A stretch of 61,920 nt of DNA, filler included, from Sphacelaria rigidula (GCA_964200075.2; 10 parts of 10 records of this genome joined end to end with filler, not necessarily neighbours in it), one strand, 5' to 3'; positions 1 through 57,750 are shown, counted from the whole stretch's first letter. Notes: generated by a model from the sequence alone, not told the origin. Numbers and translations: made by a program.

Positions 1-173
1 CGTGTACACCGCATTCGTTGGGTGCACCTAGCCCGCACTGCCCAACTCCTCCTGCGGAGTGTTGGGGGGAAATACCTTCGTTTTGTGTTACTGTTTTGTA
101 TTTTCCCAACGGAAGCGATTTGCGGGTTGAACCTCATTTTATAGTTCAACCCGAAATATTAGGATCGACTGTT
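1..173 (+). mobile_element. Right end of an AACA...TGTT-type LTR/TIR-like repeat
   Basis: Reverse-complement similarity to 57009-57181 (CGTGTACACCGCATTCGTT.GGTGCACC...). Ends GGATCGACTGTT, followed by TA then TGG (possible PBS start). Confidence 0.6.
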
Positions 174-1339: not shown

Positions 1340-2379
1340 AAAAAAATGCTCGTAGATCGCAAGCGCGCTGCACTATCCTTCGACAGCCCACCCCGGAACC
1401 AGTTTACCCCACTGCCACGACGGAAGTGACCATACAAGGCGTGATAGCTGGTTCGGGCTGGATGAAGTGCCTCTCATGGGCGCTAGTGGCGAAACAACCC
1501 CAAGTGTGGGACTAACCCTAACTTTCATTGCGTCTGTGCAGCGTTCTGTTTAGGCACCCGTTTTATCCAACTGACTGTATTTTCCCCCGAGCAGCTCCCT
1601 AGGGAGCTTAGTATCATCACGTCTGATAATAAGTGGAAGGACTGCTCGACGAGTGGCTTCTTTTTACTGTGTATTCTTGGTCACAAACACAGGGGGTCTG
1701 ATGCCACGAGCAACTACGTGCGTCATGATGTTGTACTCTGGTAATAGTGTATCTCAGCAGACTGCTGGATGATGCTGCGTTTCAAAGATCGCTGGCGTCT
1801 GTCGCCGTGTTGAATCGTTTCGCTGACGGCGGTCGTCGCCGGCGGCAACAACATGAAGTCTCTCGCAGATGCTAAACAAGAGGCGCTCGAAAACTCGATG
1901 ACTAGTTCAAAGAAGTTTGTCTTCAGCATGCTTGCTTTCGATCAGCTACACGCTTAGATATACCCACCACGTCACGAGCTGTAGACGTTACAGGAGGTGC
2001 GGTAGCTCACGTTCGTGTGGGCGGAGCAGGCGAGTACCTCGCTGCTACATTTTCCCTGCCCTCCACTTCGAAAATATACATGTACGCAATTGACCAGCAC
2101 CGTACTTGCGTCAGCGGCAGTGGCGCGACGGGGACATCGCCCTGTCACGTGGTCTGTAGCGATTAGAGGCACGTCCTGTTCAAGAAACGCCGCAGCCTGA
2201 CGGTGGCTTTTCTTTCGAACTGCTCATCATGCTCGGACTGCCGTATGGAAGCTTCCGGCACGAATGCCATGGCCGACACTGCTTGCGTATCCCGAGCCTA
2301 TTGGACAAAATGAATGAAATTTCGATGACGACTTCAACCTCTCCCAAATGTTGAACCTCAAAATCGGATCCGGGCTGTT
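1340..2379 (+). mobile_element. Diverged, interrupted copy of one arm of the 4279-5964 fold-back element
   Basis: Blocks match 5380-5840 directly; the end GGATCCGGGCTGTT matches the reverse complement of 4279-4292. Confidence 0.75.
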
Positions 2380-3762
2380 TAATGAGGCGTTGCTCATATT
2401 GGAGAACCGTCACATACGCGATGTATAAACAGGACAAACCTTGCTCCTCCATGTAACTTGAAGCATATATATCTCGACGCCGGCTGTACCCGACGAGTAG
2501 ACGTAAGGCCCATAACTAGACCGAATCCCCCGACACTTACTCATCGTGCCCTTGGAGTAACTTGTGTGGAGCGCTTCAATTGTGTTGGTATTCACAACAA
2601 TCTTCTTCAAACGTTCGAGACAACGACGTCAAACAACTGGAAAGGCTATCGACGAAGATTCATTATGGAAAACTGTAACTTAATCGAGACGAATTTGAAG
2701 GAGACGGCCAATGCTAGCAACAAGTCTAGACCCCCACAGGAACGCAGTCGACAGGCATGTTGTAAGGCCCACTACTATCGAAAACATTTTTTTTGCAGAA
2801 ATTCTGAACTCTTGGAGATCTCCAACCTGCCCAGAGGGTGGCGTTCACATCGAGTTTTGCGGTTGCCGTTAGATCTCTCATTACAGACGCAGTGCTGATC
2901 TCGTCGTTGGCTCGCCTTTGCCGGCCTGAAGATGCCACTCACACCAACCCACGGCGCTTCCTACTTCCCGACATCGCTCATGGTGTCACTGGGAAGATCC
3001 CTGATGACTCTCGAACGCGTGCGAGCACCACGGCTAACAGACAGGGCAGCTCTACCATTCGCTGTAGTAGGGTGAGAGTTGTTCGGACTACGCCACAAAC
3101 TAAACTTCGGATAAAGTAGCCGCTTCATTCACGGAGAAGTCTGAATGCAGAGTCCGAAATGTGCAAACATTCTGGATATCTTCGAAACCCAGTGTCAATG
3201 ATGACGGGCCCTATCCTCGAATAGATTTAGTATCCTGTAGTATACCTAATATAAGCGCACTCGCTGGTTGAGAAGGTTGGTGGGTAAGGCAAATTCTCGA
3301 CTAGTACATGATTAACTTCGGCGAGACCCGCGACGAACAAGTCGCGTCCGGGTGAAGCAGTGCGGCAGACCAGGTCTGGGCGGCAGCGGGGCGGTGGTAG
3401 TGAGCGCCGAATGTCTGTGCCTAGTACCACAACAGTGCACAGTATCATATAAATCCACCGGCTTATACGAAATCTGCTGGTGATGGCACCAATATTCACC
3501 TGCTGAACTCGATCAGTAGCAGGGAGCAGTACTCACCACTCGAAATGGGCGCTAATATCCCCCTCCGGCGCAGTGAGTCAGCTTGTAGCTGTACGCGACA
3601 ATGGGCTACCCTACCGAGTACTGTACGATACCGTATTTCGTCAAGAAAAATCGGCTGTGAGCTTCACACCAGGTTTGTGACTTGTTCAGTAATATTTCTT
3701 CTCTCGCTATCTTCTCACCACCTTCCCTTGTCCCTTCACCGTCAAACCCCATCCGCACGCAG

Positions 3763-3829
3763 CGAGTGGAGACTTGGGTACGCAGCATGCAGTGGCGACC
3801 AGCAAAGCCCGATCAACCTTTCCCTTGCC
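3763..3829 (+). CDS. Probable alpha-carbonic anhydrase N-terminal exon (3' boundary uncertain)
   Basis: A pyrimidine tract and CAG acceptor precede EWRLGYAACSGDQQSPINLS, matching the alpha-CA W-x5-C-x-G-x2-QSPI[ND][IL] motif. No other exons found. Confidence 0.55.
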
Positions 3830-4137
3830 GTACAAGAAGCTGAAGCGGGCAGTTACACAGTAGTACCCTAGTAGGGCGTTTTCACGCACCGTGGGGGGTC
3901 CCATGTAGTGTGGAGGGTCGTCAGCCTAGCACAGCCGTATTAGCTGGGATCCGTACAATACTACTATGTTTCAAATAGCTGACGCTGGTATAGCGGATCG
4001 GACTTGTGGCAGATAAATTCGACCTCACTCTGGGTGAGACCCCGCTCTGTATAGCAGTATGTGCTCGAATCTCGATATCTAGGAATCATATTTCGGTGGC
4101 ATAGCTAACGTCTGAGCGGGATGTACTGTGTGCTTTT

Positions 4138-4278
4138 AATAGCCGATTATCGAAATTGAGGATTGAGATTTTCGTTGACGATGAATACCCGGAAATTTAA
4201 AATACTCATTTTGACACCAACTTTTCGAAATATGGTTGCACTTCTCCACCTGCCGGTAGCTATTGACAGCTACTACAC
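4138..4278 (+). mobile_element. Left arm of an AACA-type fold-back element, interrupted by the 4279 element
   Basis: Colinear with 31155-31290 (AATAGCCGATTATCGAAATTGAGG...TTGACAGCTACT). Confidence 0.7.
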
Positions 4279-5964
4279 AACAGCCTGGATTCGTTTTTGA
4301 GGTTCAACATTTAATTGAGGTTCGACGGACCATCGAAATTTCATTTACGTTGTTCAAAAGGCTTGGGATTCGCAACCGCTTTCGACCATGTGCCCCTAAC
4401 GCAGAAGTTTCTGCGCGGCAGCGAAAGCATGGTGGTGAGGAGTCCAACAGAAAGGTCACCGTCGTTGATTGTGCCGCATCTTTTGAGAAACCCCTCCCTG
4501 AGTCTAAGCGCTACGGAACACGTAACAAAGCATGCTGGAAACATACTTATTTGGACTAGTCATCGAGTTTTCGAGCGCCTCTTGTTGAGTATCTGAGAAA
4601 GATTTCATACTGTTGCGCCGGCGACGACCGCCGTCAGCGAAACGATCCAATGCGGCGGCAGATGCCAACGATCTTTGAAACGCATCATCATTCAGCAGTC
4701 TGCTGAGATACACCGGTGCCCCACAATAAAGCTGCAGACACACTCAACGGGGGTATGGGTTAGCCGCACGCCTGGGTTGTTTCGCCAGTAGTATGCCCAT
4801 GCAAGGCGCTTAATCCAGTCTGAACCAGCCATCACGCCTTGTATGGCCACCTCCGCCGTGGCTGTGTTGAGAACCGGTTCCGCGGTGGGCTGTGTTGCAT
4901 GATACGTAGTCTACTGTAGTGCAACGCGCTCGAACAATTCTTTTTGATTCAGAAGCCGCGGTAGCTGTAGTTTGAATATCCCTTCTGACGGTCCCAGACA
5001 GGATCTGATGCAGCGACGGAAAGCGCTGGCACCTTCCCCCTCATATGGGATTTGAGACAACCTCAGGGTTAGGATTGGACCCCAGGGGGAGTCCGGAAAT
5101 AACGGGTTGTTTTCTTGGGAAGCAGTCGTTCATTGTAACAGGTGTAAAGTGTTCAAGCAAGGAAATTTCGATTTTCAACTGGGGAAGATGTACTACGGTA
5201 CCCCCGAAAACAATTCTACATGTTTAATTCTGAGCGATGTTCACCAACCACCCCCACAGTTGTCACGAATCCCATCTGAGGGGGAAGGTGCCAGCGCTTT
5301 CCGTCGCTGCATCAGATCCTGTCTGGGACCGTCAGAAGGGATATTCAAACTACAGCTGCCGCGGCTTCTGCATTAAAAAAACAAATTTCAAGCGCGTTGC
5401 ACTACAGTAGACTACGTATTGTTCAATAGCCCACCGCGAAACCGGCTCTTAGCACAGCCACAGCGGAGGTAGCCATACAAGGCGTGATGGCTGGTTCAGA
5501 CTGGATTAAGCGCCTCGCATGGGCATACTACTGGCGAAACAACCCCAGGCGTGGGGCTAACCCTTACCCCCGCTGTGTGTGTCTGCAGCTTTATTGTGGG
5601 GCATCCATTTGATCCAAGACCACTGTACGGTAGTGATGCTGTACTCTGGTGATGGTATATCTCAGCAGACTGCTGAATGATGATGCGTTTCGAAGATCGT
5701 TGGCATCTGCCGCCGCATTGGATCGTTTCGCTGACGGCGGTCGTCGCCGGCGCAACAGTATGAAATCTTTCTCGGATACTCAACAAGAGGCGCTCGGAAA
5801 TTCGATGACTAGTCCGAATAAGTATGTTTCCAGCATGCTTTGTTACGTGTTCTGTAGCGCTCAGACGCAGGGAGGGGTTTCTCAAAAGATGCGGCACAAT
5901 GAATGACGGTGACTCTTCTGTTGGGCTCCTCACCATCATGCTTTCGCGGCCGCGCAGAAACTTC
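4279..5964. mobile_element. Large fold-back element: ~650-bp inverted arms (4404-5052 / 5268-5964) around a ~215-bp spacer; starts AACAGCC
   Basis: Arms read as reverse complements, e.g. GACGGTCCCAGACAGGATCTGATGCAGCGACGGAAAGCGCTGGCACC. The right arm is cut by a hAT MITE at 5965. Confidence 0.9.
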
Positions 5965-6102: not shown

Positions 6103-6213
6103 NNNNNNNNNNNNNNNNNNNNNNNNNNNNNNNNNNNNNNNNNNNNTTAATTAATTAANNNNNNNNNNNNNNNNNNNNNNNNNNNNNNNNNNNNNNNNNN
6201 NNGGGCGGTGGGT

Positions 6214-6248: not shown

Positions 6249-7238
6249 CGCGTACGTGCCCAAAAAGCGGCCTTCACGACGCAGTTGGACATCCGTGCGC
6301 GTGGTACACATCGCTCGTCTTACAAGAAGCATCTTATGTATTTTCACCCGACCTTCAGGGATTCGACTCAAACCGAGGGCATCGTACTCAGGAGATCAGC
6401 AACTCTGGCTTGGACTATATTTTGTTCAAGAATACCGGTAGGGGGTGTCAGAAGTTGATGTGTGGCTGTGGCTTAGGTTCGTGTCATATCTCTGCGCGCG
6501 TCGTCTTGTGGTAACTACGTTATATTCCTTCCGCGGTGCCATTTTCCGCTGTCTGAGTAATGCCACATAACCGAGTTAACTCACGAGTTGTCCGACGTGT
6601 GCTTGTTTTCAAGCAATGGGCTCGTAGCACCTGAAATAGCATGGTTGAACAGCCAAGTTGAGATTTTGCGTCGGTCTAGCTTGTGTGTGTGCATCGTCAG
6701 CAGCAAACAGGATGGCAGCGCCCTGTACGCCTTCGTATCCTGCTAGCGTTGCCGGTGACACTTGTAGGAGCGGAGATGCATGCACGATCGCAGAGCAGCT
6801 AGTGGTGGTATGTAAATACTGTAGGGAGAGGGGATGAGCTATGCGCGCGGCAATACACTAGCTTTGCGGGCATGGCCCCCCTAACTTACGTGAAGGCGTT
6901 TTTTCTCCAGCCAAAACAATTCCACACGTCGGACAGATCAGCTCCCTGTAGCTCGAGCTAGCTCTTCCTTAGCGTAGCTCACTAGTGAGCTATGAGAGCA
7001 ACATGAGCTACGCAGGTTCGCCCCAGATGAGCTACCAACCCGTAGCTCATCTGTGCATATCCGCCATGGGTGAGCTATGAGAGCGGCATGATCTACGCAT
7101 GTTTGTCTTGGATGGGCTATGAGAGCTACATGATCTACCCATGTTTGCTCTGGTTGAGCTAAAGAGCTGCGAGAGCTACGCCGATTTTGGAGTTGTTTGT
7201 GTTCCGATGCTTATGGATGTTGATACGTGAAAAGGGTT

Positions 7239-8840: not shown

Positions 8841-11409
8841 TCAAGAAATATGAATTGGTCGATCATCAAGGACACATAATCATGTTCTGAACCATCCGAC
8901 CATGCGAACGAGGATTTGTGGTGACTTATTTTCTTCCCACCGCGAAGAGCGAAGCAGAACACCACAACCTAATGACATGTTACGCCATCCGTTCGACCAA
9001 CAGTGTAACATCATGAGCGACACCGGGTTTACCAGCGGCGAGCTAGGCACATGACGTGAGTGAGCTACCGAGCGTAGCTCATCCACTCATGTTTTCCCCG
9101 GGTGAGCTTTAAGAGCTGCGTGAGCTACAAGTGTTTGCCTTCGGTGAGCTACCGGACGTAGCTCATCCGCGCATGTTTTTCCCGGGTGAACTATGAGAGC
9201 TACATGCGCTACACACGTTGACCCTAGGTGAGCTATGAGAGCTACATGAGTTACGTACGTTTGTCCTGAGTGAGCTACCAACCCACAGCCGATCAGCTCA
9301 TATTCTCCCTGGGTGAGCTATCGGACGTAGTTTGCATGTACATGTTTGACTACAACTGAGCTACAGCCGGGAGATGAGCTTGCTCATGAGCTTTCCGACG
9401 TGTAAATAATTCCGAAACCATGAATGGGGGGAAAAGAAAGAGGCCTGCTGGCCGATGGGCACCAAAGAGGTTAGAGGTTAACCCTGACTTCGAACTGCGA
9501 AGTCTTCGAGTGTTCAGAGGTACAACGGAGCTAAACAAGAAGCCAAAAAACACTATTAAACTGTTCCGATATTACACACTCTGTACTCCCCCACGACTTC
9601 TGACTGTCGTATATGTAGTTGCTGCTGTACACCATCACGAGATCTTGCATAGTGAACAGACTGGCAAGCAGAGATGTGCACTGTCGGATCTCAGTGTACG
9701 AATACCCGCACGCACGTGCTTACTTTGTATTCGTAGACCTGCAACGCGTGTTTCCCTTCAACATTAAGGACAGCACGCAAAACCAGGTTATGAAATTCGG
9801 ACCGCCAGGTGCCGCAGCCGGGTGCCAAGCACTACCATCATGAGTGTATACGTGCTGCACAGAGTCAACATCAAGTAGGAGATATTACGCGATTTCTAAT
9901 GCCAATGACACTGCTGCAGCACCATGCAGTGCAGTAGAGCTCGGTATCATACGGTACGAGTCTGCTCCTGGCTCGTTCCGTTTCGGACTCTTGAGAACTC
10001 CTGTTTTGAAAAACCTCGACCCTCATCATGGCGGAACACAACAACTTTGTGTTTGGGGGAGTTCATCTTCAACAATAGAGACAGCCGACGAAAGCGAAGC
10101 ACAAATCACTCGAGACTCACCCCATACCGGACATCATGTTGCACTCCTAATGGTCAGTTTGCCCACTTTGTTTTCGCACAGATTGCCAAACTCGACCAAC
10201 CCCGTATTATATCATACTTTTAGTTTTTCATCACCACATTAGCTTCCACAAAGCAGGCCGACCGCTATCGGGCCGCTAAACACACCGCCCATTGAGGAGC
10301 CGCCCGCCAAGAGCAACTTCCCATCTGCGTTTTCAGCAAGTCTCCTCTTGTTTAATAGGCCAAACTACATCATGCTCCATCTTTCATAATGCTAAGCAAA
10401 TATATCAAGCCAAACATGAAAGAAACGTACCCATATTTACGATTGACAAGATCGTGTTCGACCTTGCAGATTGTAGAGTACATAGGAACAGTACATACGA
10501 ATCTTCCAAAACGTTCTCGAGCATTTGCGCCGCATTTTTAGTTCCTGTTCGACAATGTCGAAAAGCAACTGCAGCAACCCCTCACGAACCTCACGAACAA
10601 ACTACAAACAGTATCCCCGACTAACGACGATATCCCACGGTGGAGAGAGAGCCGCGACCTTCATCCACTGCACTCTCGTCGACGGCAAGCAATCGGTGCC
10701 ACGGATCAGAGCACCGCACTGCAATGGGCACGTGCTCGTCGAAAGTGCGAGACAGCACAGTCGCAAATAGTGGTGGCGTCGCGGATGAGACGCCGACACC
10801 GAAGAAAGCGGCCGCGGCGGTGGTCGTGAAACCTGGCATTGCAGGCATGTATAATATCAACGTCCTCAATTGTGTTATTGTAGGTGTTATTGTACAGTAG
10901 CGCAGTGTTGATATCGGTGCACATTTATTTGTACTGCACGAGAGATCAGATGCTCGGGGACAGGTTGACTGAGAAAAGTCACGTCGAGCACAGAGACGAC
11001 TGCTGAGTGGCGGTCTTCTCCCAAGGCAGCAAGTCGCATACCTGAAGAAAAACGACGTACACACTATGATACGTTCGAAGTATCGTCGTGATTTTGAACA
11101 GAGGAAATGATCGAGCCATACGTGATTCATGTATGCTGATGCTTTTGCATAGTCTAAAGTAGATTAATGGGTGTTCGATCGTATCTCAGGATGAAAATTA
11201 ACGCCAGCTCGAAGACCAACCTATAGTGCCAGTGGAGGACACATGGGCTGCTCCCGACTGTGACATGGGATTGTTCGTGACTCTATCCGTGCTGTCCCTG
11301 GATACTAGAGGGTACAATGTAGCGGTTGCTCAGCGAAAGAGAATCGTGGGTCATTCAGAAGCATAGTGCGGGGGGATTAAGCTGGCGTGTATTGTGGGAA
11401 ACAAGCTAA

Positions 11410-12132
11410 AAGAAAGGATCCTGTAAAATGAGGTTGACCACACAGATAGCGTTGAAGTCGCCTTCCGAAAAGTCGCATTTAATGTGAAACAGCTTTGCAA
11501 AAGCAATCACCTGAGGGTTTTATTTGTCTGTTGAAACTCTCCCTAGCTTGCCTTCTCGCGCATTGTTGCTCCGATGCCTATAGCGATGTATATCTCCTTC
11601 CTTACGTTCGAAACGGCTCTCACCAGGTGAGGGAACCCCCGTTTCATCGGATTCCCTCATGGTGAACGAAAATGGTGCCTTAGTTTTAATCGCGTCGCGG
11701 GAAAATTCACAAGGAGCAGGGAATTCCCACCTAGGAAATTTCCTTTTTTTGACACCTATGTGTTTCCAGCAACGAGAATTATTTCCCGAAACACCAACGG
11801 CGGCACTTCATCTCTCATGAAAGTATTCCCTATTTTATCATTTCGAGGAGAAAATTGATGAAACTCGAAGGAAGCCGACGATGATAGTATCCTCCTCTCA
11901 CCTGGTGAAAGCCGTCTTGATTGTGCGAAGAAGGAGATACATATGGCCATAGACACCGGAGCAACAATTCGCGACAAGGCAAGCCAGGGGAATTTCTACA
12001 AACAAACAAAAAAAGTCGATTGCTTGTTTCCCCCAAACTGTTTCACGTAAAATGTGACTTGTCGGAAAGGCGACTTCAACCCCAATTTGAATGTTCAACC
12101 TGGCTCAACTTCATTTTTCAGGATCCTTTGTT
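11410..12132. mobile_element. AACA...TGTT-type fold-back element, ~230-bp TIRs, 4-bp TSD
   Basis: Ends AAGAAAGGATCCTG / CAGGATCCTTTGTT; CTAA on both sides (11406-11409, 12133-12136). Confidence 0.88.
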
Positions 12133-12404
12133 CTAAGACCGGATGTGATGGCAAACAGATTTTTTGCCCACGGATTGTTCACTTTTGGGACGTTTGACCC
12201 ACCTTTTGACCCTCAAACAGGGAAAATCGCCAACACACGTCTCGGGCACTTTGCATCACCCCACCGAGAGGAGTCTAGTCTGCTTTTCAGATTCGCTTGG
12301 CTCCNNNNNNNNNNNNNNNNNNNNNNNNNNNNNNNNNNNNNNNNNNNNTTAATTAATTAANNNNNNNNNNNNNNNNNNNNNNNNNNNNNNNNNNNNNNNN
12401 NNNN

Positions 12405-15400
12405 GCAAGAGAGATATGCCACTTCAACCCCATATTTTGTTTGAACCCCAAAATATACAATCGGCTGTTAATTGCTTCGACGTCCTATCAAAACGAAGGG
12501 GGCGAAGAGGGAGGTACAACAGGAAGCAGAGCTCCTACCTGGGGGAATCCAAAGAGAAAAAACGCCAAGATCAGTATGCGACCAAACGGATGTTGGTCGG
12601 AAGCAGAATCTGAAAATCGGTGAGCCAACGAGATCGAGCGCCAGCCGGAAGGGGATACTAGAGCTGCAGTAGTCGTAGATGGTGGGTGGCTTCAGTAGTT
12701 CTTCGATCGTCGCCCGATGTAGGTGCTCCTGTCGTGGATGTCGTAGAGGAGGGTCGTAGTGAAGAAGGGGGGACAAACAGTCCTGAAGAAGGGAGGGAAA
12801 GTTGCAGCGAAGGAGCGTGATTCAAAGCGGTGCGTGGACGTCGTGGGTGTGGTCGATGTTGCGCTGGAGACCGTGGCGAAGTCTGGACTTGAGGGGCTGA
12901 AGGCACCAGGATCCACGTGGTGCAGATGGGCTGGGGGTGTATAGTGCTGGCCGGAGCTTGTACTGGATAGGTCCAGGGTCATCGATGAAGCGCATGATGT
13001 ATGTGCCCAGAAACCAGGTTGGCGGAGTGGGTCTGACCCAACCACCAGAGGTTGTCGCTGCCTTTGAACCAAAGGTAGCTGCCCTTGGGTAGTATTCGCT
13101 GGTTTGCCAGCCTTAGAAGTCTTGGTGGGTGCAAGTTCGTAAGCATCGGCGACAAAGCGTAGTCCCTGATCGCGGTGAAGTTCGCGGGCTGCTGCACCAC
13201 GACGCATATTGCGATATTTCTTGTTGTGAGCAAGATGTTGATGTTGGCATTGCGTCCAGTTCAGGAGAATTGCACGGCGGTGCGATTGAACGTTGGATTC
13301 GCGTTCCCAAGTCGTTCTCCAAAGACCGTGTCAGTGGGTCTTATACATGATAGTAACTTTGTCACCTCGACCACGGGTTATCTGGTGGCCGGAGATGGTG
13401 GACACGGTCGATCGGAGGGACTGTTCCGTCACGTCGTTGGTGGTGACATGGTAGGGCGGAGACTTGGTCGAGTAGCTGTTGAGAATATACCGTGTGAGTC
13501 CGGCAGGCAGGTACTTAGGCATGTTGCTTGTATCATGCGGGTTCGTGTAGGGTTTGCATCTGTGCACGGAGACGCGGGGTTTGGTGTCCTTGCCCTGGAA
13601 GCCACGAGGCAGGTCGAGATAGAGCAGCTTGACACCAACGGGTTTATCATCCGGTGATGATGACGATGGTCCGGCTGGGAGGATCTTGAATGGTTCTGTC
13701 CACTTGAGGGACAATTTTGTCTTCAAAATTGTTCCGCTGGTTGCCTTGCTGGTGGCTTCGCGGATGGTCGACAAACTGTTGTAGATCCAAACCCAATCAC
13801 CAACTTTCCAATTGGAGCTTTTGTGCATGAGGTTGTAGAGAGCAGTGTTGGATTTCTCCAGGCGCCAGGCGTTGATAGCGTGTTGTTCGCGCACGAGGGT
13901 AGACGCTTTGCGTTGTCGTGAATGCGCTAGCTCGTGATGGGATATCTAATCCTGACCCAAACCTTGATGGCCATCGAACGTGTGTCGCTCAAACACGGAG
14001 ATGGGCAGCCGAGGGTAACCTCCAAGATGGAGTTCGTTCGGAGCAAGGCCTGTGGCGGCGTTAACCGAGTTGTGGTAGGACAACATGATGTGTGAGAGAT
14101 GTATGTCCCCGTCATTTTGGCGGTCATTGACAACCATAGAGAGCATCTGGGCCATGGTGTGATTAAATCTTTCGGTACCACCGTTACTGCTAGGGTGGTG
14201 GGCGCTCGTGGCAACTTCGCGGATGCCCAGGAGCTTGTAACGCTCATCAGAGAGATCTGAGCAAACTTGCTGACCATTGTCTGGAAGGAGTCGTTTCGGG
14301 CAACCGTAGTGCTTATTGTAGTCATGGACTAATATGTCGGCCGTTCCGGTGGCAGTGAAATCTGCAGCGGTTACCGCGTACATGGACGCGTGACGGCTGA
14401 AGCGGTCAGTGAAGAGTAAGATATAGGTGTTGCCGCGACCTGTGGTCGATAGAGGGCCACATTAGTCAGTGGTCAAAGGACACAAGGTGACCTGGCGCGT
14501 TGGGGAGTCCCATAGAGATGAAGGGCCAGCGTACTGTCGGTCGTGAAGTTTTTTGGGCTTGGCATTTGAAGCATCGCCGAATCCAGAAGCGGGTGGAAAT
14601 TTCCATGTTAACCCCCCAGTGGAAGCGTTCCAAGAGCGCTAGGGTACGGGTGACCCCAAGGAGACATGACACGTCTGTGTGACAGCCTTTCATGACCCAG
14701 GGGCGCATTCATAATGGGACATATATGCGCGTTGGTTCGTCATCGAGTAGTCGTGCGTGGCGTCCCGTGGTTGAGACGGAAATTGCGCCCGTCAACGGCG
14801 TGGGACGACGCACAAGTAGTTGTACACCTTCATCCGTAGTAAAAAGGGTGCCTTCACGCACGAGTCCGTATACGTCAGAGATATCTGGTGGGGGCAGTGT
14901 GCCAACCGGGGCCGGAGGGAAGGATGGAAAAGGGACTGGGCTGTCAAGTTGTAAGTGCCGGATGGCTGCGCGACATAAAGGTTCCGCGTCTTGTTCGCGA
15001 GCCCAATCGCGGTGAGAGTAAGTGGCGAGAAACTCACGTGGTTGACATTTCGCTGGCGAGTCGACCAAACATGGTGGGGTAGGCAGCGGAAGAATAGGCG
15101 ACGGCGCAGGAGTGCCGACGTCAATGTCTGCCCCGGGAGCGGTAGATGTTGGTGGCACCGTTATGGGCGACGGGGCTGTATCAGTGCGCAGCGAAGATTG
15201 TCCGCGGCGCGTGGTGCATGTTGCAGGAGTTTTCGCGGAGCGCTGCGTTCTGGTCCGTGGGACCGGTGCTGCGTGGCTCGTGGAAATCGTAGTTGTTATC
15301 GGTAGCGGCGGGGCACTCGGGGGGGTGGTGCGTGCGGCAGACCGAGAGCGCGTGTTGTCGGAGATTAGATGGGTGACCGAAGGTGTCTCCGTGAAGAACT

Positions 15401-18335
15401 TCGCGCGAGTACCGAAAGTGCGGAAATCGACAAAATCAGAGGTAGTGGGCGCTAACCCACCCAAGACGGCGTCATATGGTAGAGGGCGAGGCCCTCCCAT
15501 ATGCATACCGGTTTCTGGGCACTGGAGGTCGAGGGCTTAAACGGGCGTTGAAAAACGTCTAATCGGGTAAATTCCAGCTTCATCGGGTTCCGTTAAATGG
15601 CAAGCCGGGCTGGAATCTGCGGCCGTAGGCAGCAGGGGTAGTCGAGAAAGGAGATCAGCGTTCCCGTTGGTTTTGCCTGGACGGTGCTTAATGGTGTAGT
15701 GGTATGCTGTTGGAAACTCCAACCACCGTGGGAAACGCGGGTTGTGTTCGTCAACCTTGTCAAGTTGTTGGAGTGCTCCATGATCCGTATAGATCCCAAA
15801 GAGCATGTGAAACATATGTTGTCGAAATTGCTTAATGGCCCAGGTGATTATTTCGCCTTCCAGTTCTAGCGGGCTCCAATTGGCCTCATTGGGCAGGGTG
15901 GCGCGGCTGATGTAAAGGATAGGTCGTAGGGAAACATCAACCTGAGGTTGATTCAAAACTCCTCCAAATACGTTTGTGCTGGCGTCAGTGGAGTTGGACA
16001 AGGCTAGAGCCATCTTGTACTACTTCCCAATCAGGAAAGCAGGGTACCGGCTGTTCGATAAGCGTTTTTAGCAATTCGCGGGTGATATTCTCCATATCGG
16101 TTGTGAAGGTAAACACGGCTCCTTTCTTGCGTAACTCGGTAAGGGGGCGAATCCGTTTAGATAAGCTTGGCAAACTTTTACGGTTACGATTACGGTTAGG
16201 ATAGTCCGCTCAACGATGAGCGAAGTTGAAAAATGTTAGTTGGCATCGGCAAGTCAGTAATCGCCTTGACTTTGTTTCTATCCGGATGTAGTCCTGCTGG
16301 CGGAATGGAATGCCCCAGGAAGCCAAGTCAGTCGCACCAAGGCGAGATTTTGATGAAGACAGTTTCAAATCGTGTGTTCGTAGGCGAGAGAAAATTTCTC
16401 GTAGAGTGCGGATATGTGCAATAGGTGAGGCATCGAAAGCGATAGCGTCATCTTGGTACATGATGATGTTCTCGAGTCCCTCGGTGACGCGTTGCATTAG
16501 GCGTTGAAAGCATCCCGGGGCAGTGGCAGCGCCTTGTGACAGTCGAAGTCACTCGTAGAGCCCGAACGAGGTACTAAAGGCCGTTAGTGGGACTGTGTCA
16601 GGGTGAATATCATTCTGAAAAATCCAGAAGCGAGGTCGAAGGTGCTGAACATTCCTCCTTCGCCAAAGGAGTCGAAGAATTCATCAAAGCGGGGAAATGG
16701 AAGTATACCGACCACAGTGACGCAATTCAACCGTTAGCAATTCACGGTCATGCGTATGTTTCCACCCTTTTTGGGAACGATCACAAGTGGCGAGATCCAA
16801 GGAGAGGAGGAATGTTGTATTAACCTCGCTCCCAAGTATACATCCAAGATGGCGTAAACCTTCTTGGTAAGGATTGGGCTTGTCCGGTATGGTCAAACAC
16901 AGTTGAAGTAGTGCGCAGCAGGGGCAACGCAGAGGGCATATTCCGAAGAGAGCTACACACCAAAGGGCACTTGTTTTGAGTTCCGTGTGCTCCACGTGAG
17001 CAGGTAGAGTAGGTCTGGACTTTATCAATGCGGCGTGTCAATTAGGGCGTAGTTGTGGAAATCGCTAAAATAACTGAGTTGTGGGGGAGAATAACCAGCG
17101 GCTGGTAGGTTGGAATGTCACAGGCGCGTATTGTCGCGAATGGAACGTGTCTCGGAACAAAGGATTCTGTTTTTGGCCGAGAGCAGTTCAGTGATAAAAT
17201 TTCACAGCTGTTTAGGCTGTGTATTGCTAACTATCGGGGTGATGTACAGCGCCACTTTACGGATGTGCGAAGCACACCAGAAGAGAACAACAACAAATTA
17301 GCTACCAGTGACGTATATTGCGACGCAGCGAAAGTGCCAGAACGGGTACGAATCTCGTGTACAGATGTCCGTGGTCACCCGGTGGGGAAGAACGGGTTGT
17401 GTTACGATATGGCCCGTGAAAAAAGATGCGAGGGACCGTATACAATCGATGCTGAAATATGAAAACGGCAGAGTTGCTGACTTGGCAAAGGGCTGAGGTC
17501 AGGAACAGCAGCAGACCGTGAGCAACGATGCATCCTGTGCAGCGTTCTTGAAACAAAACTGTAGTAGAAAACGTGTCCTATCAGAAAAGAGGGAGCAACA
17601 AGGTCAAGTACGCGAGCCAGCGATGGCTGGGCGTGTGACCGTGGTGTACTGAACGACCAGGGATGGTTGCGTTGTGCAGGTAGCACGCACGTGAAGTGCG
17701 AAGTGCAGGTGTGTATTTTGCTAAATACACAGCAACATGGCAAAGCGGGGTTGGCATGTCGATGCGCGTTGACCTAGCGTGGCACAAGGCGTGCAGTCAA
17801 ACGCTTCAGCGAGCAGCGAGCAGCAAGGGTTACGAGTCGCGAGCACAACGTACGGTGTAACACAAAGAGGAAAGTTTCGCAGTAGCTCAGGACTGACTAT
17901 CCAGCAGGTTGGGAGACAGCTGAATAGATTTGCCTACCTGAATCCAAGACCGAGGAGAGAATAATCGTGAACATTAAGCCACGCGCACGTGACTCGACAA
18001 GCAGAGATATAGTCGGTGTTGAGAAGGGAAACCCAATCGCGAAAGGAGAGACTCCTTAGTCAAACGCCAAACGTGACGGGGTTACGGCGCTGTATATGGC
18101 GAGCAAGGCTCACTAGGCAGGGCAAGGGGACAGTCAACAGACCGTACGGCCAAAACACAAGGTACTGTTCAGTGTATACTCACACTGTATACCAGCCTCG
18201 CACAGATATAACAGCGGATCCTGAAAAACGCGGTCGATCTCAACAATGAGATTCAAGTGGCATATCGTTTTTGCAGGGATGACGCGAAACAGTTACACAG
18301 AGCGACACCATCCTTCCCCCCAAAACTCTGCAGCA
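12405..18335 (-). mobile_element. Decayed Ty3/Gypsy (chromodomain-bearing) LTR retrotransposon: leader, pol and candidate LTR ends
   Basis: pol domains in RT-RNaseH-integrase order; leader 16965-18200 homologous to 59090-60200; mutually inverted AACAGC.GAT termini at 12469 and 18210. Confidence 0.92.
12822..16895 (-). pseudogene. pol: Gypsy pol pseudogene: RT, RNase H, integrase, chromodomain, Tudor-like tail
   Basis: RT: SSSPWISPLVIVPKKGG, FDLASGF, IMYQDD. RNase H: TDAS, LELE, YTDH, NADLLSR. Integrase: H2C2-like ...IRRCFKCQ, HHPSSNGGTERFNHTM, KWTEPFKI. Many stops and frameshifts. Confidence 0.95.
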
Positions 18336-18506
18336 AACAGCCGATTTTCGAAAATGGGGTTGAGAAACAAAATGAGGTTCAACTCAAAAGTCGTGCTTTC
18401 CCTGACCTAAATTCAAGACAAATGGCTTTCTAATGGACCTCCCCATCCCTCCCGACCTCCTTGCAACTATTTCGAGGGATTTTTAGCCTTTCGTCCCCCC
18501 CAAGGG
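18336..18506 (+). mobile_element. Left end of another AACA-type element inserted into the candidate LTR
   Basis: AACAGCCGATTTTCGAAAATGGGGTTGA...AAAATGAGGTTCAAC begins exactly where homology to 57009-57135 stops. Confidence 0.6.
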
Positions 18507-18786
18507 NNNNNNNNNNNNNNNNNNNNNNNNNNNNNNNNNNNNNNNNNNNNTTAATTAATTAANNNNNNNNNNNNNNNNNNNNNNNNNNNNNNNNNNNNNN
18601 NNNNNNCCCCCCCCCCCCCCCCCGCCCGGCGCGCGCCCCCGCCTGCGCCTGGTCCTCGTCATCCTCCATATCGATTTCATCAAGCTTGACGGGAATATAT
18701 ATCTGATGCACCTTCCGCTCGCCCACCCGCCCGCCCGCCCACCCGCCGCGCACCTTGACTCCTGTCTGATGACATATGCCGAGCAG

Positions 18787-25267: not shown

Positions 25268-27033
25268 CGAGGGTAGGTCGAGTAGAGTATGTACTTTTGA
25301 GTACTCGAGTAAAATACTCAAGTATTTACTCTACTCGACGTTTGAGTAGGTCGAGTACGGCCTCAAATACTCTACTCCAATTTCGAGTAGGTCGAGTACG
25401 GCCTCAAATACTCGACTCCAATTTCGATTAGGTCGAGTACGACCTCAAATGCTCTACTCAAGTATTGAGTGAGCGCTTTCAGTAATACTTGAGTATAGAG
25501 TATCACCTGAGTATGATCTCGATACTCCACTCAATTTTTGAGTACGTTGAGTACGGCCTCCAATGCGTTCCTCAACTTTTGAGTAGGTTGAGTACAAGAC
25601 ACTTTCTACGATAGCCCCCCCCCAAAACCAGCTGAAAGTGGTACGAAAAAAATGGCCATAAAGCGCCTGATGTTCGGGTCCAGGCTGCATGAAGCGCCTC
25701 ATATTGGCGACATTGGCTGGAACTAACCCAAACGTGGGAATCCCCAGCTTCTCGCTGTGCTCGGCTTTTCCCATCTCGGTTTACGTGCAGATTTTGCCTC
25801 TCAAAACCATGCACTTTTTGGGGGGGGGTATCGTAGAAAGTGTCACGACCTCAAATAGTCTCCTCAAATATCGAGTAAGCACTCTCAGTAATACTTTAGT
25901 ATAGAGCATCACTTGAGTATGACCTTAATACTCTACTCAAATGTTAAGCAGGTTGAGTATGGCCTCAAAAACTCTACTCGAATTATTGAGTAGGTTGAGT
26001 ATGGTCTCAAATACTCTGCTCAAATTTTGAGTAAATCGAGTACGACCTCAAATACTCTTCTAAAATACTGGGTAAGCACTCCCAGTAATACTTGAGTATA
26101 GAATACCCCTTGGTTATGGTGAGTATTCCTGACAGTCGGTGACTTCTTGACATCACGTCAGACTATGTTGAATACATGGGCGAATGATGGCCAATAATCA
26201 GATGGGCGGCGTCACATCACAGGCAACAAGAAGTATGAGCGAATGATGGCCATGAAAAATCTGAAAAGCGTGCAGGGCCCTTCGACAATACCCCAACATT
26301 CATTCTACCCTAGTTTTGTGCCATTTGGTTCTGATCCGAATGTTTGCTGAAGTTTGACCTTGAATCAACACTCATCATGGGTGGGTAACTCTGGGAATAC
26401 CTCGGTATTTCCTCTATCCGAGTTTGAGTATCTTTCTTCAGAACTTGAAGATTGAAGTTGAAGTTATAGGTTTTCGGTACATCGGATCCGGCCTCAAATA
26501 CTCTACTCAAATTTTGAGTATGTTGAGTACGGCCTTAAATGCTCTACTCAAATTTTGAGTACGTTCAGTACGGCCTCCAATGCTCTACTCAAATTTTGAG
26601 TAGGTAGAGTACGACCTCAAAATACTCTACTCAAATATTGAGTAAGCACTCTCGGCAATACTTCAGCATAGAGTATCACTTGAGTACGACCTCAATACTC
26701 TACTCAAAATTTGAGTAGGTTGAGTATGGCCTCAAATACTCTACTCAAATTTAAGTAGGCCGAGTACGGCCTCCAATACTCTACTCAAATTTCGAGTAGG
26801 TCGAGTACGACCTCAAATACTCTACTCAAATATTGAGTGAGCACTTTCAGTAATACTTGAGAATCGAGTATCACTTGAGTATGACCTCAATTCTCTACCC
26901 AAATTTCGAGTAGACTGAGTATGATCTCAAATACTCTACTCGAATTATTGAGTAGGTTGAGTACGACCTCAAATACTCTACTCCCACTTCAAAAATACAG
27001 AGTATTGAGTACACTCTACTCAACCTACGCTTG
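25268..27033. mobile_element. Non-autonomous hAT-like element made mostly of ~39-bp palindromic repeats
   Basis: TIRs CGAGGGTAGGTCGAGTAGAGT / ACTCTACTCAACCTACGCTTG; 8-bp TSD AAGGTTTG / AAGGTCTG; repeat unit CTCAAATACTCTACTCAAATTTTGAGTAGGTTGAGTACGAC. Confidence 0.85.
25598..25844. mobile_element. Nested MITE with GAC...GTC ends and a probable 4-bp TSD; diverged relative at ~29010-29200
   Basis: GACACTTTCTACGATA / TATCGTAGAAAGTGTC; flanks ACAA / ACGA interrupt one repeat unit. Confidence 0.75.
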
Positions 27034-30066: not shown

Positions 30067-30847
30067 GTACTCGTGATATTGCATGCCGTAGTCATGAGAC
30101 CATTGACCCCGTCGCTCTACAAAGCTGGGACGGAGCACGTCGGGTTTTCGCCGAACCAGGTTCGCAGTCAGTCACCAAGCGCGAAGCACCGGGGTGTGCT
30201 CGGCGAGTCGCAGTTGCACCCTGCTAAGATTGTTCAGCAGTAAGTGTATTGATTATCTTACATCTGGAGGACAACCCACAATATTATTTCATTCTCTGGT
30301 ATCGCCTCTTCTAGAGACAGGCACGGCTTACACACTGTCTCATGGGTGTCTCACGGACGGGAAGGGGGGAAAAGGGGTCAAACAAGGCCGGGGGGAAGGG
30401 GGGGGTGTACTCATTTTTTGCATGCCTTAGTCGTTTGACCATTGACCACGCACTACTTTCGAGACGGAGCACCATTCTTACTTCTAATAGAGACACCTCC
30501 AACATTGGGCGCCCATTACACCAAACATGACGGGAGGGGTGTACTCATGATCTTGCGTGACATAGTCACATGATCGTTGACCTCGCATCCCTATAAATCC
30601 GGGACGGAGCACGCCGGATTTTCGCCAGACCGAATTCGCAATCAATCACCAAGCGCGAAGAGCCGTGGTGTGTGTGTTCGGCAGGTCGCATGGAGGATCA
30701 GCTATATCCTGCTGAGATTGTTCGGCCCGAAGCCTACTAATTATCGTGCATTCGGATGACAGCCTACAATGAGTTGCTTCATTTTCTGGTATCGCAATTT
30801 CCAGAGACAGCCACATCTTATACACTGCCTCATGGGTGTCTCACCAT
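30067..30847 (-). mobile_element. Stacked copies of an abundant SINE-like repeat and a LINE 3' tail; further copies at ~31011, 35600, 36107, 38535, 40811, 43261, 48300, 49463, 50066 and 60630
   Basis: Recurrent + strand GTACTCATGATCTTGCATGCCGTAGTC...CCAGAGACAGCCAC...GGGTGTCTCA, usually preceded by a G run. Confidence 0.85.
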
Positions 30848-31154
30848 GACGGGGGGGGGGGGGGGGGGGGGGGCTTATTTTTTTTTTGCTTTGTTGTTTT
30901 TCCTTTTGACNNNNNNNNNNNNNNNNNNNNNNNNNNNNNNNNNNNNNNNNNNNNTTAATTAATTAANNNNNNNNNNNNNNNNNNNNNNNNNNNNNNNNNN
31001 NNNNNNNNNNTGATTATCTTGCATTTGGATGACAGCCTACGATGAGTTGCTTTATTCTGTGGTATCGCCACTTCCGTAGACAGCCACGGCTTATACACTG
31101 CCTCATGGGTACGTATTTTTTTTTGAGCGGGGGGTATCGGGGCATCACTCAATG

Positions 31155-31581
31155 AACAGCCGGTCATCGAAATTGAGGGTGGAGGTTTTCGTTGAGGATG
31201 AGAACCCGGAGAATTGAGATCTTCGTATCCACACCGCGTCTTCGAAATATGCTCACATTCCTTCACCTCCTGGTAGGTGTTGACAACTACTGCTCGCCGT
31301 ACAAATCATGATTTCGATACCAGGTGAACAATCGGTTTCCGGAAATTCCGACGACACGATCATATCACCTAAATTTCCCAAAAATATTTCTTCACCTGGG
31401 ACCCCAGCATTTCGGTGATCGAAATCCGAATTTGTATAGCGTGTAGTAGTTTTCAACAGCTACCAGTAGGTGAAGGAATGGAAGCATATTTCGAAGATTT
31501 GTTCTGGATACGGAGATTTTAATTCTCCGGGTTCTCATCCTCAATGAAAAGCTCCATCTTCAATTTTGATGATGGGCTGTT
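31155..31581. mobile_element. AACA...TGTT-type fold-back element, ~135-bp TIRs, 4-bp TSD
   Basis: AACAGCCGGTCATCGAAATTGA / TCAATTTTGATGATGGGCTGTT; AATG on both sides (31151-31154, 31582-31585). Confidence 0.88.
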
Positions 31582-31754
31582 AATGGTGGAATAAAAGAGG
31601 AATAATCGTAAAGCCTTTCTTAGTGTTGCTACGGTGGATAATAACTACGTAGTACCTGTCGGTCCATCACTTCGTCCATGCGCTAGTGAGGGTGGAACAC
31701 CCTTTGCCGTCGTGTATATTGTAGCATGACCGATTGTGGCGGCTCAAAACTCAC

Positions 31755-57005: not shown

Positions 57006-57650
57006 TGTAACAGCGGATCCTAAGAAATGGAGTCCATCTCAAAAATTAGGGTGAAGCGACATTTCTTTTTTGCAGGGATGACGCGAAGCACTTACGACCG
57101 AGCGAAGCCATCTTTCCCCCCAAATGTCCGCAGCAGTTAAGCAGCTGTGGCTTGGTGCACCAAACGAATGCGGTGTACACGCATGTCGATGACGATATCA
57201 CCAGAGAGAGAAGCAACGACAGAGAGGAAGCTCCTCGTCCTTTGTGTGTCCTCGCTCGGCGATTAGCAATCGCTCGAGAGACTGGCCTCATCGATGTTAC
57301 CAGCATGTACCCAAATTTTTCATGTGCCGAAACATCGAGCTGCGGAGAGATTTCCTCTCGCCTTACAATTGCCTGTCGAGCTCACGAATGCGAAGACCGA
57401 TTTCTCTCTGCCTCTCCGTTTGGACAGGACGCGCCTCTGTGCGCTGAAAAACATGTCGTCAGAAAATAGGGTAATGTTCCTGTCACCGCTAATACTCTTC
57501 TCTGTCACACACATGCCAGCAAGGGCGGTGGTGCGGCGAGAACAACAGATATATCCAATTTGAATTTGGGGGTGTTATTCATCGTTGATTTCACCCGACA
57601 TGTTTGTGAGCGACCCTCTGGGTGCCCAACGACAACAGCGTGTGAAACGT
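57006..57650 (-). mobile_element. Candidate 5' LTR (upstream boundary uncertain)
   Basis: Abuts the PBS; 57009-57135 is homologous to 18210-18335. Confidence 0.65.
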
Positions 57651-57750
57651 CAGTTAGGGGGGGGGGGGGGGGGGGGGGGAAGAAGAAAAAAGGGCGGGGG
57701 GGGTCTGGTGAGAGGGGGGGAGAAAAAAAAATCAGAGGTGNNNNNNNNNN

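Follow-up and report, generated by a model that had tools for sequence, protein, structure and literature searches.

Fold-back elements with shared AACA...TGTT ends in Sphacelaria rigidula, probably non-autonomous DNA transposons, beside a Ty3/Gypsy fragment

The AACA...TGTT units described here are probably non-autonomous fold-back or MITE DNA transposons of the cut-and-paste type, high in copy number, which lie beside a Gypsy fragment as a result of insertion. The units share ends and internal boxes, form palindromes, carry target-site duplications (TSDs), nest within one another, have unrelated flanks and show excess read-contig depth. By "the window" we mean the whole stretch of DNA analysed, 61,920 nucleotides from Sphacelaria rigidula (GCA_964200075.2), which consists of 10 unlinked blocks of 6102 bp each, with 100-nt spacers (N/TTAATTAATTAA) between them. 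An earlier, sequence-only reading had proposed, for the range 11410-18335, that the units are either LTRs of a Gypsy lineage or an unclassified TIR family in or next to retroelements. Its observation on the ends is partly confirmed and its interpretation partly supported; the second alternative fits all of the evidence. Because this range crosses a spacer, the element at 11410-12132 (block 2) and the Gypsy fragment (block 3) are not demonstrated neighbours. The coordinates are collected in Table 1.

Table 1. Features of the window discussed in the text (signs after the termini give their direction).
Feature	Position	Strand	Basis or remark
The 12 termini	173-, 2379-, 4138+, 4279+, 11410+, 12132-, 12469-, 18210+, 18336+, 31155+, 31581-, 57009+
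U-type end, AACAGTCGATCC at 173, reading leftwards	1..173	-	homologous to 57009-57181; cut by block start
Second E4-type fold-back, right arm and TGTT end (2379)	1383..2379	-	inverted likeness to E4
E3, left ~140 bp of an E2-like element	4138..4278	+	likeness to E2
E4, large fold-back, left end AACAGCCTGG	4279..5964	.	self-inverted arms
E1, complete 723-bp fold-back	11410..12132	.	self-inverted arms, DNA fold, TSD
Artificial spacer, block 2/block 3	12305..12404	.	N44 + TTAATTAATTAA + N44
U2-type right end, ...ATCGGCTGTT at 12469	12405..12469	-	terminal profile; E 2.4e-7 when left out
Decayed Ty3/Gypsy pol fragment	12788..16892	-	Pfam domains and protein homology
Gypsy domain rve	13949-14461	-
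Gypsy domain Integrase_H2C2	14469-14708	-
Gypsy domain RT_RNaseH	15540-16019	-
Gypsy domain RVT_1	16213-16548	-
Module M, 1.16-kb repeat	16967..18130	.	colinear with 59092-60185, block 10
U-type left end, 126 bp	18210..18335	+	80% alike to 57005-57135
V-type left end, AACAGCCGAT, boxes at +19 and +37	18336..18506	+	inserted in U copy; runs off block
E2, complete 427-bp whole-length palindrome	31155..31581	.	self-inversion, DNA fold, TSD
PBS-like 10-mer TGGCGCCCAA	56996..57005	-	3 nt (ACA) beyond TGTT of the 57009 end
U-type left end	57009..57181	+	at least 173 bp in common with the 173 copy

All 12 of the ends listed in the sequence-only reading exist, with the tip AACAGCNGAT and, behind it, TGRGGTTSA boxes that start 19 and 37 nt from the tip. 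The tips read AACAG, AATAG or AAGAA, and such ends recur in 5 blocks. A terminal profile, made from the first 60 nt of the 12 termini and searched over the window, recovers exactly these termini (E 8e-12 to 1.7e-8), the next match having E 1.2. When each subfamily in turn was left out of the training, all 12 left-out termini were found (E 2e-7 to 0.12), and 11 of them outrank every match other than the 12 ends. The twelfth, at 4140+ (E 0.098), stands just below a match at 123-156+ (E 0.067), which lies inside the copy that ends at 173. The boxes number 11 in the window against 2.4 +/- 1.5 expected (0 of 100 shuffles have at least 11); 9 of them share the orientation of a terminus and are spaced 19, 37 or 48 nt from it. 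The bare 10-mer AACAGCNGAT, with at most one mismatch, is not enriched alone (21 against 15.5 +/- 3.9, with 21 or more in 12 of 100 shuffles). In the 4-nt stretches just outside the 12 ends, A and T occupy 38 of 48 positions, in a window of about 50% GC.

The subfamilies (E1, E2/E3, E4, U, U2 and V) are alike only over the first ~45-60 nt. This is the pattern of non-autonomous elements that share a transposase, not that of one lineage's LTRs. We know of no terminal motif that matches the AACAGCNGAT tip, and text searches of the literature, which compare families by description and not by sequence, gave no family with these ends. A scan pattern of AACAGCNGAT plus two boxes fits only 2 of the 12 window termini and is hence a narrow probe; it had no matches in prokaryote genome contigs or viral contigs. 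Its single match among metagenome contigs, on an AT-rich, prokaryote-like contig of 2962 bp, was rejected as a chance match.

That the two complete copies are long palindromes with perfect 4-bp TSDs, as had been claimed, is borne out, and both fold as strong hairpins. E1 lies between two copies of CTAA (11406-11409 and 12133-12136) and E2 between two of AATG (31151-31154 and 31582-31585), so a 4-bp TSD is present in both complete copies; these are the only two elements that give TSDs, the other ends having no partner in view. The E1 arms (11407-11631 versus 12135-11897) are 74% alike and enclose a loop of ~265 bp; the DNA fold reaches -166.4 kcal/mol against -85.0 +/- 5.5 kcal/mol for shuffles (z -14.9; 0 of 20 equal it). 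E2 is self-inverted over 31152-31584 (74% alike), and its fold reaches -144.4 against -45.8 +/- 4.3 (z -22.9; 0 of 100 shuffles equal it). Terminal inverted repeats are present in E1, E2 and also E4, whose ~800-bp arms (4404-5169 versus 5964-5162) are 90% alike (673/746) and meet with no loop; beyond 5964 another repeat takes over the outer part of the right arm. The second E4-type copy matches E4 in inverted orientation (2268-2379 versus 4390-4279, 77%; 1747-1933 versus 4713-4528, 89%), and no left arm for it was found within its block. E3 aligns with both sides of E2 (4138-4274 with 31155-31291, and 4136-4278 with 31583-31441) and is interrupted at 4278/4279 by the left end of E4, a nested insertion. 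In the same manner, the U copy at 18210 is interrupted at 18335/18336 by the V end, and in run X1 of the public data described below, 96 contigs extend leftwards from 18336 with unlike sequence (agreement 0.38).

None of the 19 ORFs of at least 70 aa within E1, E3, E4 and the 1383-2379 arm matches a Pfam family at E<=0.001, E2 has no ORF of that length, and no transposase was seen in the window. Two sub-threshold matches to the Pfam family SOCS_box occur in the E4 arms.

Contig depth was taken for block 3 only, from four public runs belonging to two studies. In run X2, the summed contig depth, which does not equal copy number, amounts to 1.56 million over 18321-18506 and, over 12405-12608, to 0.76 million. 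Pol has 15,000-190,000, the stretch 16893-18116 has 2,100-5,200, and a clean single-copy contig stands at 75. The other three runs rank these parts as X2 does. The AACA ends thus have 10-700 times the summed depth of the Gypsy parts and, as a rough figure, ~10^4 times that of a single-copy contig. Depth over module M is low relative to pol. Contig joints (12448<->18248 and 18363->18269) had been considered as signs of hairpin copies; this explanation was dropped, and we now read them as copies intermediate between subfamilies.

The palindromes might instead be fold-back artefacts of assembly or sequencing. Such chimeras exist among long reads, as is described in part of PMC12870357, and the window is assembled from cut blocks. 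However, the arms are 74-90% alike and not identical, both complete copies are flanked by TSDs, the same ends occur in 5 blocks, and contigs from all four public runs are very deep over the block-3 ends. We therefore regard an artefact as extremely unlikely.

Under the fold-back transposon reading, each end would be a terminal inverted repeat of ~45 bp, with AACAGCNGAT as its tip and (A)AATGRGGTTSA twice behind it, in direct orientation and starting at 19 and 37 nt. These boxes are candidate binding sites for a transposase that would be encoded elsewhere in the genome. Insertion would involve a staggered 4-bp cut in AT-rich DNA, giving rise to the 4-bp duplication. The subfamilies would have their ends in common and unrelated bodies, most of these being long palindromes (from 0.4 kb to over 1.7 kb), and the density of elements would lead them to insert into each other, as V into U and E4 into E3. 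In block 3, the decayed Gypsy fragment, truncated at its 5' side, would by chance have the ends of two unrelated copies on its two sides. We infer the transposase, the movement by cut-and-paste and the superfamily; the class II mechanism, too, is inferred, since a transposase was not seen in the window and autonomous copies are not known.

The Gypsy fragment itself has broken frames. RT begins at ~16892, homology of the C-terminal ORF extends to ~12788, and the fragment is apparently 5'-truncated. Its RNase H ORF matches only generic RT_RNaseH clusters in Protein Atlas. The sequence-only reading saw a Gypsy internal region between outward-facing AACA ends. This is correct as to the ends at 12469 and 18210, which face outward around 5.74 kb, a length close to that of Gypsy interiors, and as to the presence of RT, RNase H and integrase. 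However, the region is incomplete, with its frames broken and gag and protease undetectable; neither of these genes, nor a PBS or PPT, was found for the block-3 Gypsy. The 12469 end abuts the 3' side of the fragment. Between the 18210 end and RT lie ~1.3 kb, mostly module M, where searches for a CCHC or D[ST]G motif, for Pfam families and for protein homologs gave nothing. Fifteen ORFs from module M, its block-10 copy and the 3' region gave only noise in Pfam at E<=1, and a search of near-length proteins with the module M ORF 17405-17773(-) gave no homologs. The block-10 copy (59092-60185) is accompanied by neither pol nor an AACA end, and homology of 18130-18209 to block 10 lacks significance (65 of 300 shuffles score at least as high).

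It is very unlikely, in our view, that the AACA...TGTT units are hairpin-like LTRs of a Gypsy lineage, with E1 and E2 as solo LTRs left by LTR-LTR recombination, which was the first proposal of the sequence-only reading. The outward-facing ends around RT, RNase H and integrase agree with it, as does the PBS-like site behind ...TGTTACA at 57009. Gypsy-type integrases can also produce a 4-bp TSD, so CTAA and AATG are compatible with an integrase and fall within the 4-6 bp expected, without being diagnostic. LTR pairs are directly oriented around gag-pol and near-identical at insertion; of the two block-3 units only 65 bp and 126 bp are visible, and these parts are inverted. Against LTRs, the two ends are 66% alike, no better than random pairs of subfamilies, and belong to different ones (U2 and U). 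The 18210 end is closer to 57009 (77%) than to 12469, and arms of a single element are 74-86% alike (74% for the two ends of E1, 86% for those of E2). Only 65 bp of the block remain beyond the 12469 end and 297 bp beyond the 18210 end. The pol strand of block 3 shows neither a TGG-type PBS following 18209 nor a PPT preceding 12469; purine runs within 330 nt of 12469 are at most 6 long. Also against LTRs are the undetectable gag and protease, the separate repeat (module M) between RT and the 18210 end, the absence of an AACA unit from the block-10 copy of that repeat, and the fact that only ~45 bp are common to the subfamilies. When the flanks beyond TGTT were compared among the four U/U2 copies, 5 of 6 pairs showed no likeness above that of shuffles, and the sixth has a weak one (19 of 500 shuffles). 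We know of no LTR that is palindromic over its whole length. Finally, the ends are AACAG...CTGTT, with no TG...CA, and not the TGTNR...YNACA reported for most Gypsy LTRs in PMC2836005.

One loose thread counts against the fold-back transposon reading and is hard to dismiss. As had been noted, the 57009 end is followed by ACA and a PBS-like site, TGGCGCCCAA, on the minus strand and 3 nt away, in the orientation of a PBS behind an LTR ending in ...TGTTACA. We take the 10-mer to resemble a tRNA-Lys-type PBS. It contains the only TGGCGCCC in the window; by a rough estimate, the chance of this placement is ~0.1% for this 8-mer, or a few percent if other tRNA ends are allowed. A tRNA scan and an Rfam scan of the window gave nothing. 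In addition, a PPT-like purine tract, G6AARGA, is conserved on that strand in all three U copies, ~15 nt to the inside of the GCAGCA point. The surroundings of the PBS-like site speak against a Gypsy LTR: Pfam gives no match in the region, neither BLASTN nor tblastx shows likeness to the Gypsy of block 3, and the adjacent ORF, 55845-56327(-), has no homolog among the near-length proteins searched. No inverted partner for the 57009 end was found within 56900-61920, the remaining 4.9 kb of the block.

These observations raise the question of whether the family is tied to retroelements in some other way: by a short-LTR origin, by mobilization in trans by an integrase, or by insertion at LTR/PBS borders. 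We think such a tie unlikely. In one possible variant, the fold-back families would stem from a non-autonomous retroelement with short LTRs (PPT-like tract, LTR of ~105-130 bp, PBS), of which the U units would be the end; in another, a Gypsy/Ginger-type integrase may act on the fold-backs in trans, or LTR/PBS borders may be their preferred insertion sites. The PBS-like site, the purine tract in 3 of 3 U copies and the 4-bp TSD favor a tie, as do the 4 of 12 ends that adjoin retroelement-like sequence, although with 12 ends in a repeat-rich sample such adjacency is expected by chance. Against a tie, homology between the 57009 and 173 copies continues past the supposed LTR start, the flanks behind TGTT are unrelated, and the TGTNR ends of Ginger and Gypsy, as described in part of PMC2836005, have the reverse polarity of AACAG. 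In a specific form of this idea, the AACA terminus would be, in origin or even today, the U5 end of a very short LTR (~105-130 bp, TG...TGTTACA); the fold-backs would descend from that LTR end and be moved by a Gypsy-type integrase. This seems quite unlikely, and the same assessment covers the corollaries that G6AARGA is a PPT-like tract immediately upstream of that LTR and that a tRNA-Lys-type PBS follows directly on the LTR's end. Mobilization by such an integrase would explain the 4-bp duplications.

The fold-back transposon reading can also be set against known systems. Like fold-back/MITE elements, Drosophila Foldback (FB) and Galileo, the AACA family consists mostly or wholly of two inverted arms with short direct repeats inside the TIRs, has no coding capacity, reaches high copy number and is nested. 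Its TSD of 4 bp is shorter than those of FB (9 bp) and Galileo (7 bp). In Kolobok, the TSD is also 4 bp but reads TTAA, unlike CTAA and AATG. The same difference separates the family from piggyBac, which duplicates TTAA according to part of PMC5199201. The long TIRs of Galileo hold multiple transposase-binding sites, as described in part of PMC3688188.

Our best guess is that the superfamily is possibly Sola-like, because the TSD is 4 bp and not TTAA, and the TIRs are long and variable. Sola elements have a 4-bp TSD, very variable termini and TIRs of 11 to 1124 bp in the account given in part of PMC10741241, and the likeness rests on such descriptions of TSD and TIR; unlike Sola, the AACA family shows no DDD transposase in the window. 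Pfam is without a Sola model (PMC5751038). Table 1 of PMC12477816 lists Sola-1 and Sola-2 families for Ectocarpus, a brown alga, and the genome analysed here likewise looks brown-algal. For Ginger1 and Ginger2, relevant passages of PMC2836005 give a 4-bp TSD, which the AACA family shares, and TIRs of 40-270 bp, with Ginger2 preferring AT-rich RTATAY targets and Ginger1 having TSDs of CCGG/CCGT, compared to CTAA and AATG here. Their termini, as in Gypsy LTRs, are TGTNR, while the AACA family has AACAG as its tip and TGTT as its 3' end, which is the opposite polarity. A link to Gypsy integrase, such as those same passages give for Ginger, would account for a location near retroelements. Ty3/Gypsy LTRs and solo LTRs share with the AACA family a short TSD, many copies relative to interiors and, in block 3, a position adjoining pol; they differ in having TG...CA, and from them the family is also set apart by whole-length palindromy, by block 3 having neither PBS nor PPT, by ends that are not a matched pair and by unrelated subfamily bodies.

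If the fold-back transposon reading is true, the AACA family would be an unclassified yet ordinary kind of repeat: a very abundant fold-back/MITE family with 4-bp duplications. Wider interest would arise only if the minority reading is true, i.e., that of a TIR family derived from LTRs or mobilised by an integrase; a U5 origin would then be a bridge between LTR retrotransposons and TIR elements, in the direction opposite to Ginger. The family would matter mainly for annotation: ends of this kind interrupt assemblies, look like LTR boundaries and can give a decayed retroelement fragment the appearance of a complete element. In the Ectocarpus genome, DNA transposons and 'unknown' families make up a large, poorly classified share, according to part of PMC12477816. 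A defined terminal signature and TSD would help to sort such poorly classified families.

The shared ends of the AACA...TGTT elements are real and well beyond chance. Within the window, a profile of the terminal 60 nt matches exactly 12 ends (E 8e-12 to 1.7e-8; next match E 1.2), and all 12 positions at which a sequence-only reading had placed a common AACA tip are indeed present. As a guard against circularity, each subfamily in turn was dropped from the profile's training set. The left-out ends were recovered in 12 of 12 cases (E 2e-7 to 0.12), and 11 of them outrank all matches outside the twelve; the exception, 4140+ (E 0.098), is narrowly outranked by a match at 123-156+ (E 0.067), within the copy whose end is at 173. 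It had also been proposed that the tip is followed by a motif. The 10-mer tip AACAGCNGAT, allowing one mismatch, is not enriched on its own (21 occurrences vs 15.5 +/- 3.9, with 12 of 100 shuffles reaching 21), whereas TGRGGTTSA is enriched (11 vs 2.4 +/- 1.5; none of 100 shuffles gets to 11), and nine of its 11 copies sit at offsets of 19, 37 or 48 nt from an end, oriented as that end is. Because the boxes are enriched at set offsets, the end is a unit of about 45 bp, consisting of AACAGCNGAT and then two direct TGRGGTTSA boxes about 18 nt apart. Likeness between subfamilies is confined to the terminal 45-60 nt. Immediately outside the twelve ends, 38 of the 48 bases (four per end) are A or T; the window as a whole is about 50% GC.

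The two complete copies, E1 and E2, are long palindromes with perfect 4-bp target duplications (CTAA and AATG), as had been claimed. As single-stranded DNA they fold at -166.4 kcal/mol (E1; shuffles -85.0 +/- 5.5) and -144.4 kcal/mol (E2; shuffles -45.8 +/- 4.3). The AACA end of the large fold-back E4, at 4279, interrupts an E2-like half element (4138-4278). Weak SOCS_box matches below the gathering score occur in both E4 arms, at 4914-5129 (-) (E 4e-4) and 5056-5373 (+) (E 8.5e-4), and are probably noise mirrored by the palindrome.

The window is composed of ten blocks of exactly 6102 bp with 100-nt spacers between them (N44 + TTAATTAATTAA + N44, at 6103-6202, 12305-12404, 18507-18606 and then every 6202 bases), and features crossing a spacer are not contiguous in the genome. 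The range 11410-18335, previously treated as one stretch, crosses the spacer at 12305-12404 and joins two unlinked blocks: E1 is in block 2, the Gypsy sequence is in block 3, and they are therefore not shown to be neighbours. Likely weak assembly spots are the G/C homopolymer-rich runs at 57657-57750, beside a 10-N gap (57741-57750), and a long run of this kind at the start of block 4 (18607-18630).

The proposed Gypsy internal region does contain reverse transcriptase (RT), RNase H and integrase domains, but it appears 5'-truncated, has broken frames and includes a separate repeat. The RT domain starts near 16892. Upstream of it we found no protease or gag, and relaxing the Pfam threshold to E<=1 still gave no family; CCHC and D[ST]G motifs are absent from the three minus frames of 16500-18209, and the longest upstream ORF has no homolog among the near-length proteins searched. 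Between RT and the 18210 end lies module M, a discrete 1.16-kb repeat (16967-18130) colinear with 59092-60185 in block 10, where no pol adjoins it and no AACA unit follows; past 18130 the two copies show only shuffle-level likeness (a score that 65 of 300 shuffles equal or exceed). Because no gag or protease was found and module M lies upstream of RT, the 5.74 kb between the two block-3 AACA ends is made up of an unrelated repeat and a pol fragment that appears 5'-truncated, and does not amount to an intact interior. On the C-terminal side, a search with ORF 12695-13330(-) yields 46 relatives (E<=0.001), of which most align to its first 70 residues and two extend to residue 181 (about position 12788); a weak Chromo domain in one of ten scanned relatives overlaps the matched part. 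This side is consistent with a chromovirus-like integrase tail. For the RNase H ORF, the best of the longer relatives is a partial protein that NCBI assigns to the brown alga Sphacelaria rigidula (68% identity, covering 38% of the query); together with the intron-split NDK gene of block 6, it makes a brown alga or a relative the probable host.

The suggestion that the AACA...TGTT units are the LTRs of this Gypsy fails the tests that could be run on this window. The ends at 12469 and 18210 are 66% alike over 65 nt; the corresponding values are 74% for the two ends of E1, 86% for those of E2, 77% for 18210/57009 and 71% for 12469/4279. On the pol strand, no TGG-type primer binding site (PBS) follows the 18210 unit (ATATCTGTGCGAGG...), and no PPT precedes the 12469 unit, where purine runs within 330 nt do not exceed 6. 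A third AACA end cuts the 18210 unit short at 18335/18336. This is a nested insertion, since the copies at 57009 and 173 stay alike for at least 45 bases beyond the cut point. In the 60 nt beyond TGTT, the four related copies 173, 12469, 18210 and 57009 show shuffle-level likeness in five of six pairs, the sixth being weakly alike (19 of 500 shuffles). A conserved LTR/leader junction would differ; unrelated flanks are what an outer transposon boundary shows.

The main loose thread is a possible retroelement link at 57009. There, TGGCGCCCAA stands on the minus strand 3 nt (ACA) past TGTT, and the strand reads ...GCTGTTACA-TGGCGCCCAA, which is the form of an LTR end and then a PBS. The ACA and a tRNA-Lys-type PBS-like sequence, as described earlier, are present: TGGCGCCCAA corresponds to the 3' terminus of tRNA-Lys(CUU)-type tRNAs, and no tRNA gene was found in the window for comparison. 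TGGCGCCC occurs once in the window (1.8 expected), at this site. By a rough estimate, the chance that it would fall, correctly oriented, a few bases from any of the twelve ends is about 0.1%, but this climbs to a few percent when other tRNA ends count. A G6AARGA tract on the same strand is common to the three U copies, one of the subfamilies of ends. Against a real PBS, Pfam gives no match in the adjoining 1.2 kb, the one ORF there taken to protein search (55845-56327(-)) has no homolog, and the region is unlike the block-3 Gypsy by BLASTN and tblastx.

Block 3 was compared with contigs of four public sequencing runs from two studies, one run being labelled 'algae metagenome'. Contigs were placed at 80% likeness and depth was summed over them, which gives a rough ranking and not a copy number. 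On this ranking, AACA ends exceed 'Gypsy' parts in abundance by one to nearly three orders of magnitude in run X2, and the order of regions is identical in the other three runs. In run X1, 96 contigs run leftwards from 18336 into unlike sequence (agreement 0.38), as expected at the boundary of an interspersed element. Differences from related contigs over 12405-18506 are dominated by transitions (X2: A>G 172, G>A 198, C>T 105, T>C 119, and 26-53 per transversion), as expected of old, decaying copies.

Coordinates of features in the window, with summed contig depths from run X2 (a rough ranking only)
Feature	Positions	Strand	Description
E1	11410-12132		723 bp; arms 74% alike, ~265-bp loop; flanks CTAA/CTAA
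E2	31155-31581		427 bp; palindrome over whole length; flanks AATG/AATG
E4	arms 4404-5169 and 5964-5162		block 1; much larger fold-back, 90% alike (673/746)
Second E4-type copy	right arm ends at 2379
RVT_1	16213-16548	-	block 3, Gypsy pol, broken frames
RT_RNaseH	15540-16019	-	block 3, Gypsy pol, broken frames
Integrase_H2C2	14469-14708	-	block 3, Gypsy pol, broken frames
rve	13949-14461	-	block 3, Gypsy pol, broken frames
Region of V end	18321-18506		depth 1.56 million
Region with U2 end	12405-12608		depth 0.76 million
pol bins			depth 15,000-190,000
Region of module M	16893-18116		depth 2,100-5,200
Exact single-copy contig	17776-18135		depth 75
Dispersed ~300-bp family	30053-30861, 35589-36463, 38521-38827, 40797-40940, 50063-50414, 60626-60939

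The window holds other repeats as well. The dispersed ~300-bp family (blocks 5-10; 67-77% alike, often in tandem pairs) is unclassified, and copies of it lie in the ~1.2-kb intron of a nucleoside diphosphate kinase (NDK) gene in block 6 (exons 33546-34025 and 35216-35671, minus strand; Pfam E 2e-13 and 7e-12). Arrays of a 41-bp unit, which has its own short inverted repeat, occupy 25327-26990 with higher-order periods of 81 and 195 bp, and a satellite with a unit of ~84-85 bp (half unit 42 bp) occurs in blocks 2 and 9 (6924-7225, 9060-9325, 54751-55350). At 45404-46953, a ~775-bp unit stands twice in tandem (83% alike), with short inverted repeats at its borders (88-92%), and the junction of the two copies (46131-46231) forms a palindrome of 101 bp; this is possibly another TIR element, tandemly duplicated.

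Among known families, passages of PMC2836005 give TGTNR for the ends of Gypsy LTRs, Ginger1 and Ginger2 alike, and the AACAG...CTGTT ends here have the opposite polarity. The same source gives CCGG/CCGT as the target duplication of Ginger1 and RTATAY as the preference of Ginger2. Other papers assign 6-bp duplications and TA...TA ends to GingerRoot (PMC6839031) and duplication of TTAA to piggyBac (PMC5199201). When contig collections from metagenomes, prokaryote genomes and viruses were scanned with a pattern that fits 2 of the 12 window ends, a single match came up, and it is a chance one. Our best guess, in a comparison by description, is that the superfamily may be Sola-like, Sola itself being defined by its DDD transposase, because Sola elements are described in PMC10741241 as having 4-bp duplications, highly variable termini and TIRs between 11 and 1124 bp long, and because Table 1 of PMC12477816 includes Sola-1 and Sola-2, along with 51 'DNA/Unknown' families, in Ectocarpus. 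The AACA...TGTT elements are best explained as a high-copy family of fold-back/TIR transposons that are non-autonomous and duplicate an AT-rich target of 4 bp. Copies have inserted into one another and also into other repeats. Relative to known families as described, they may represent a new, unclassified family of a known fold-back/TIR type.
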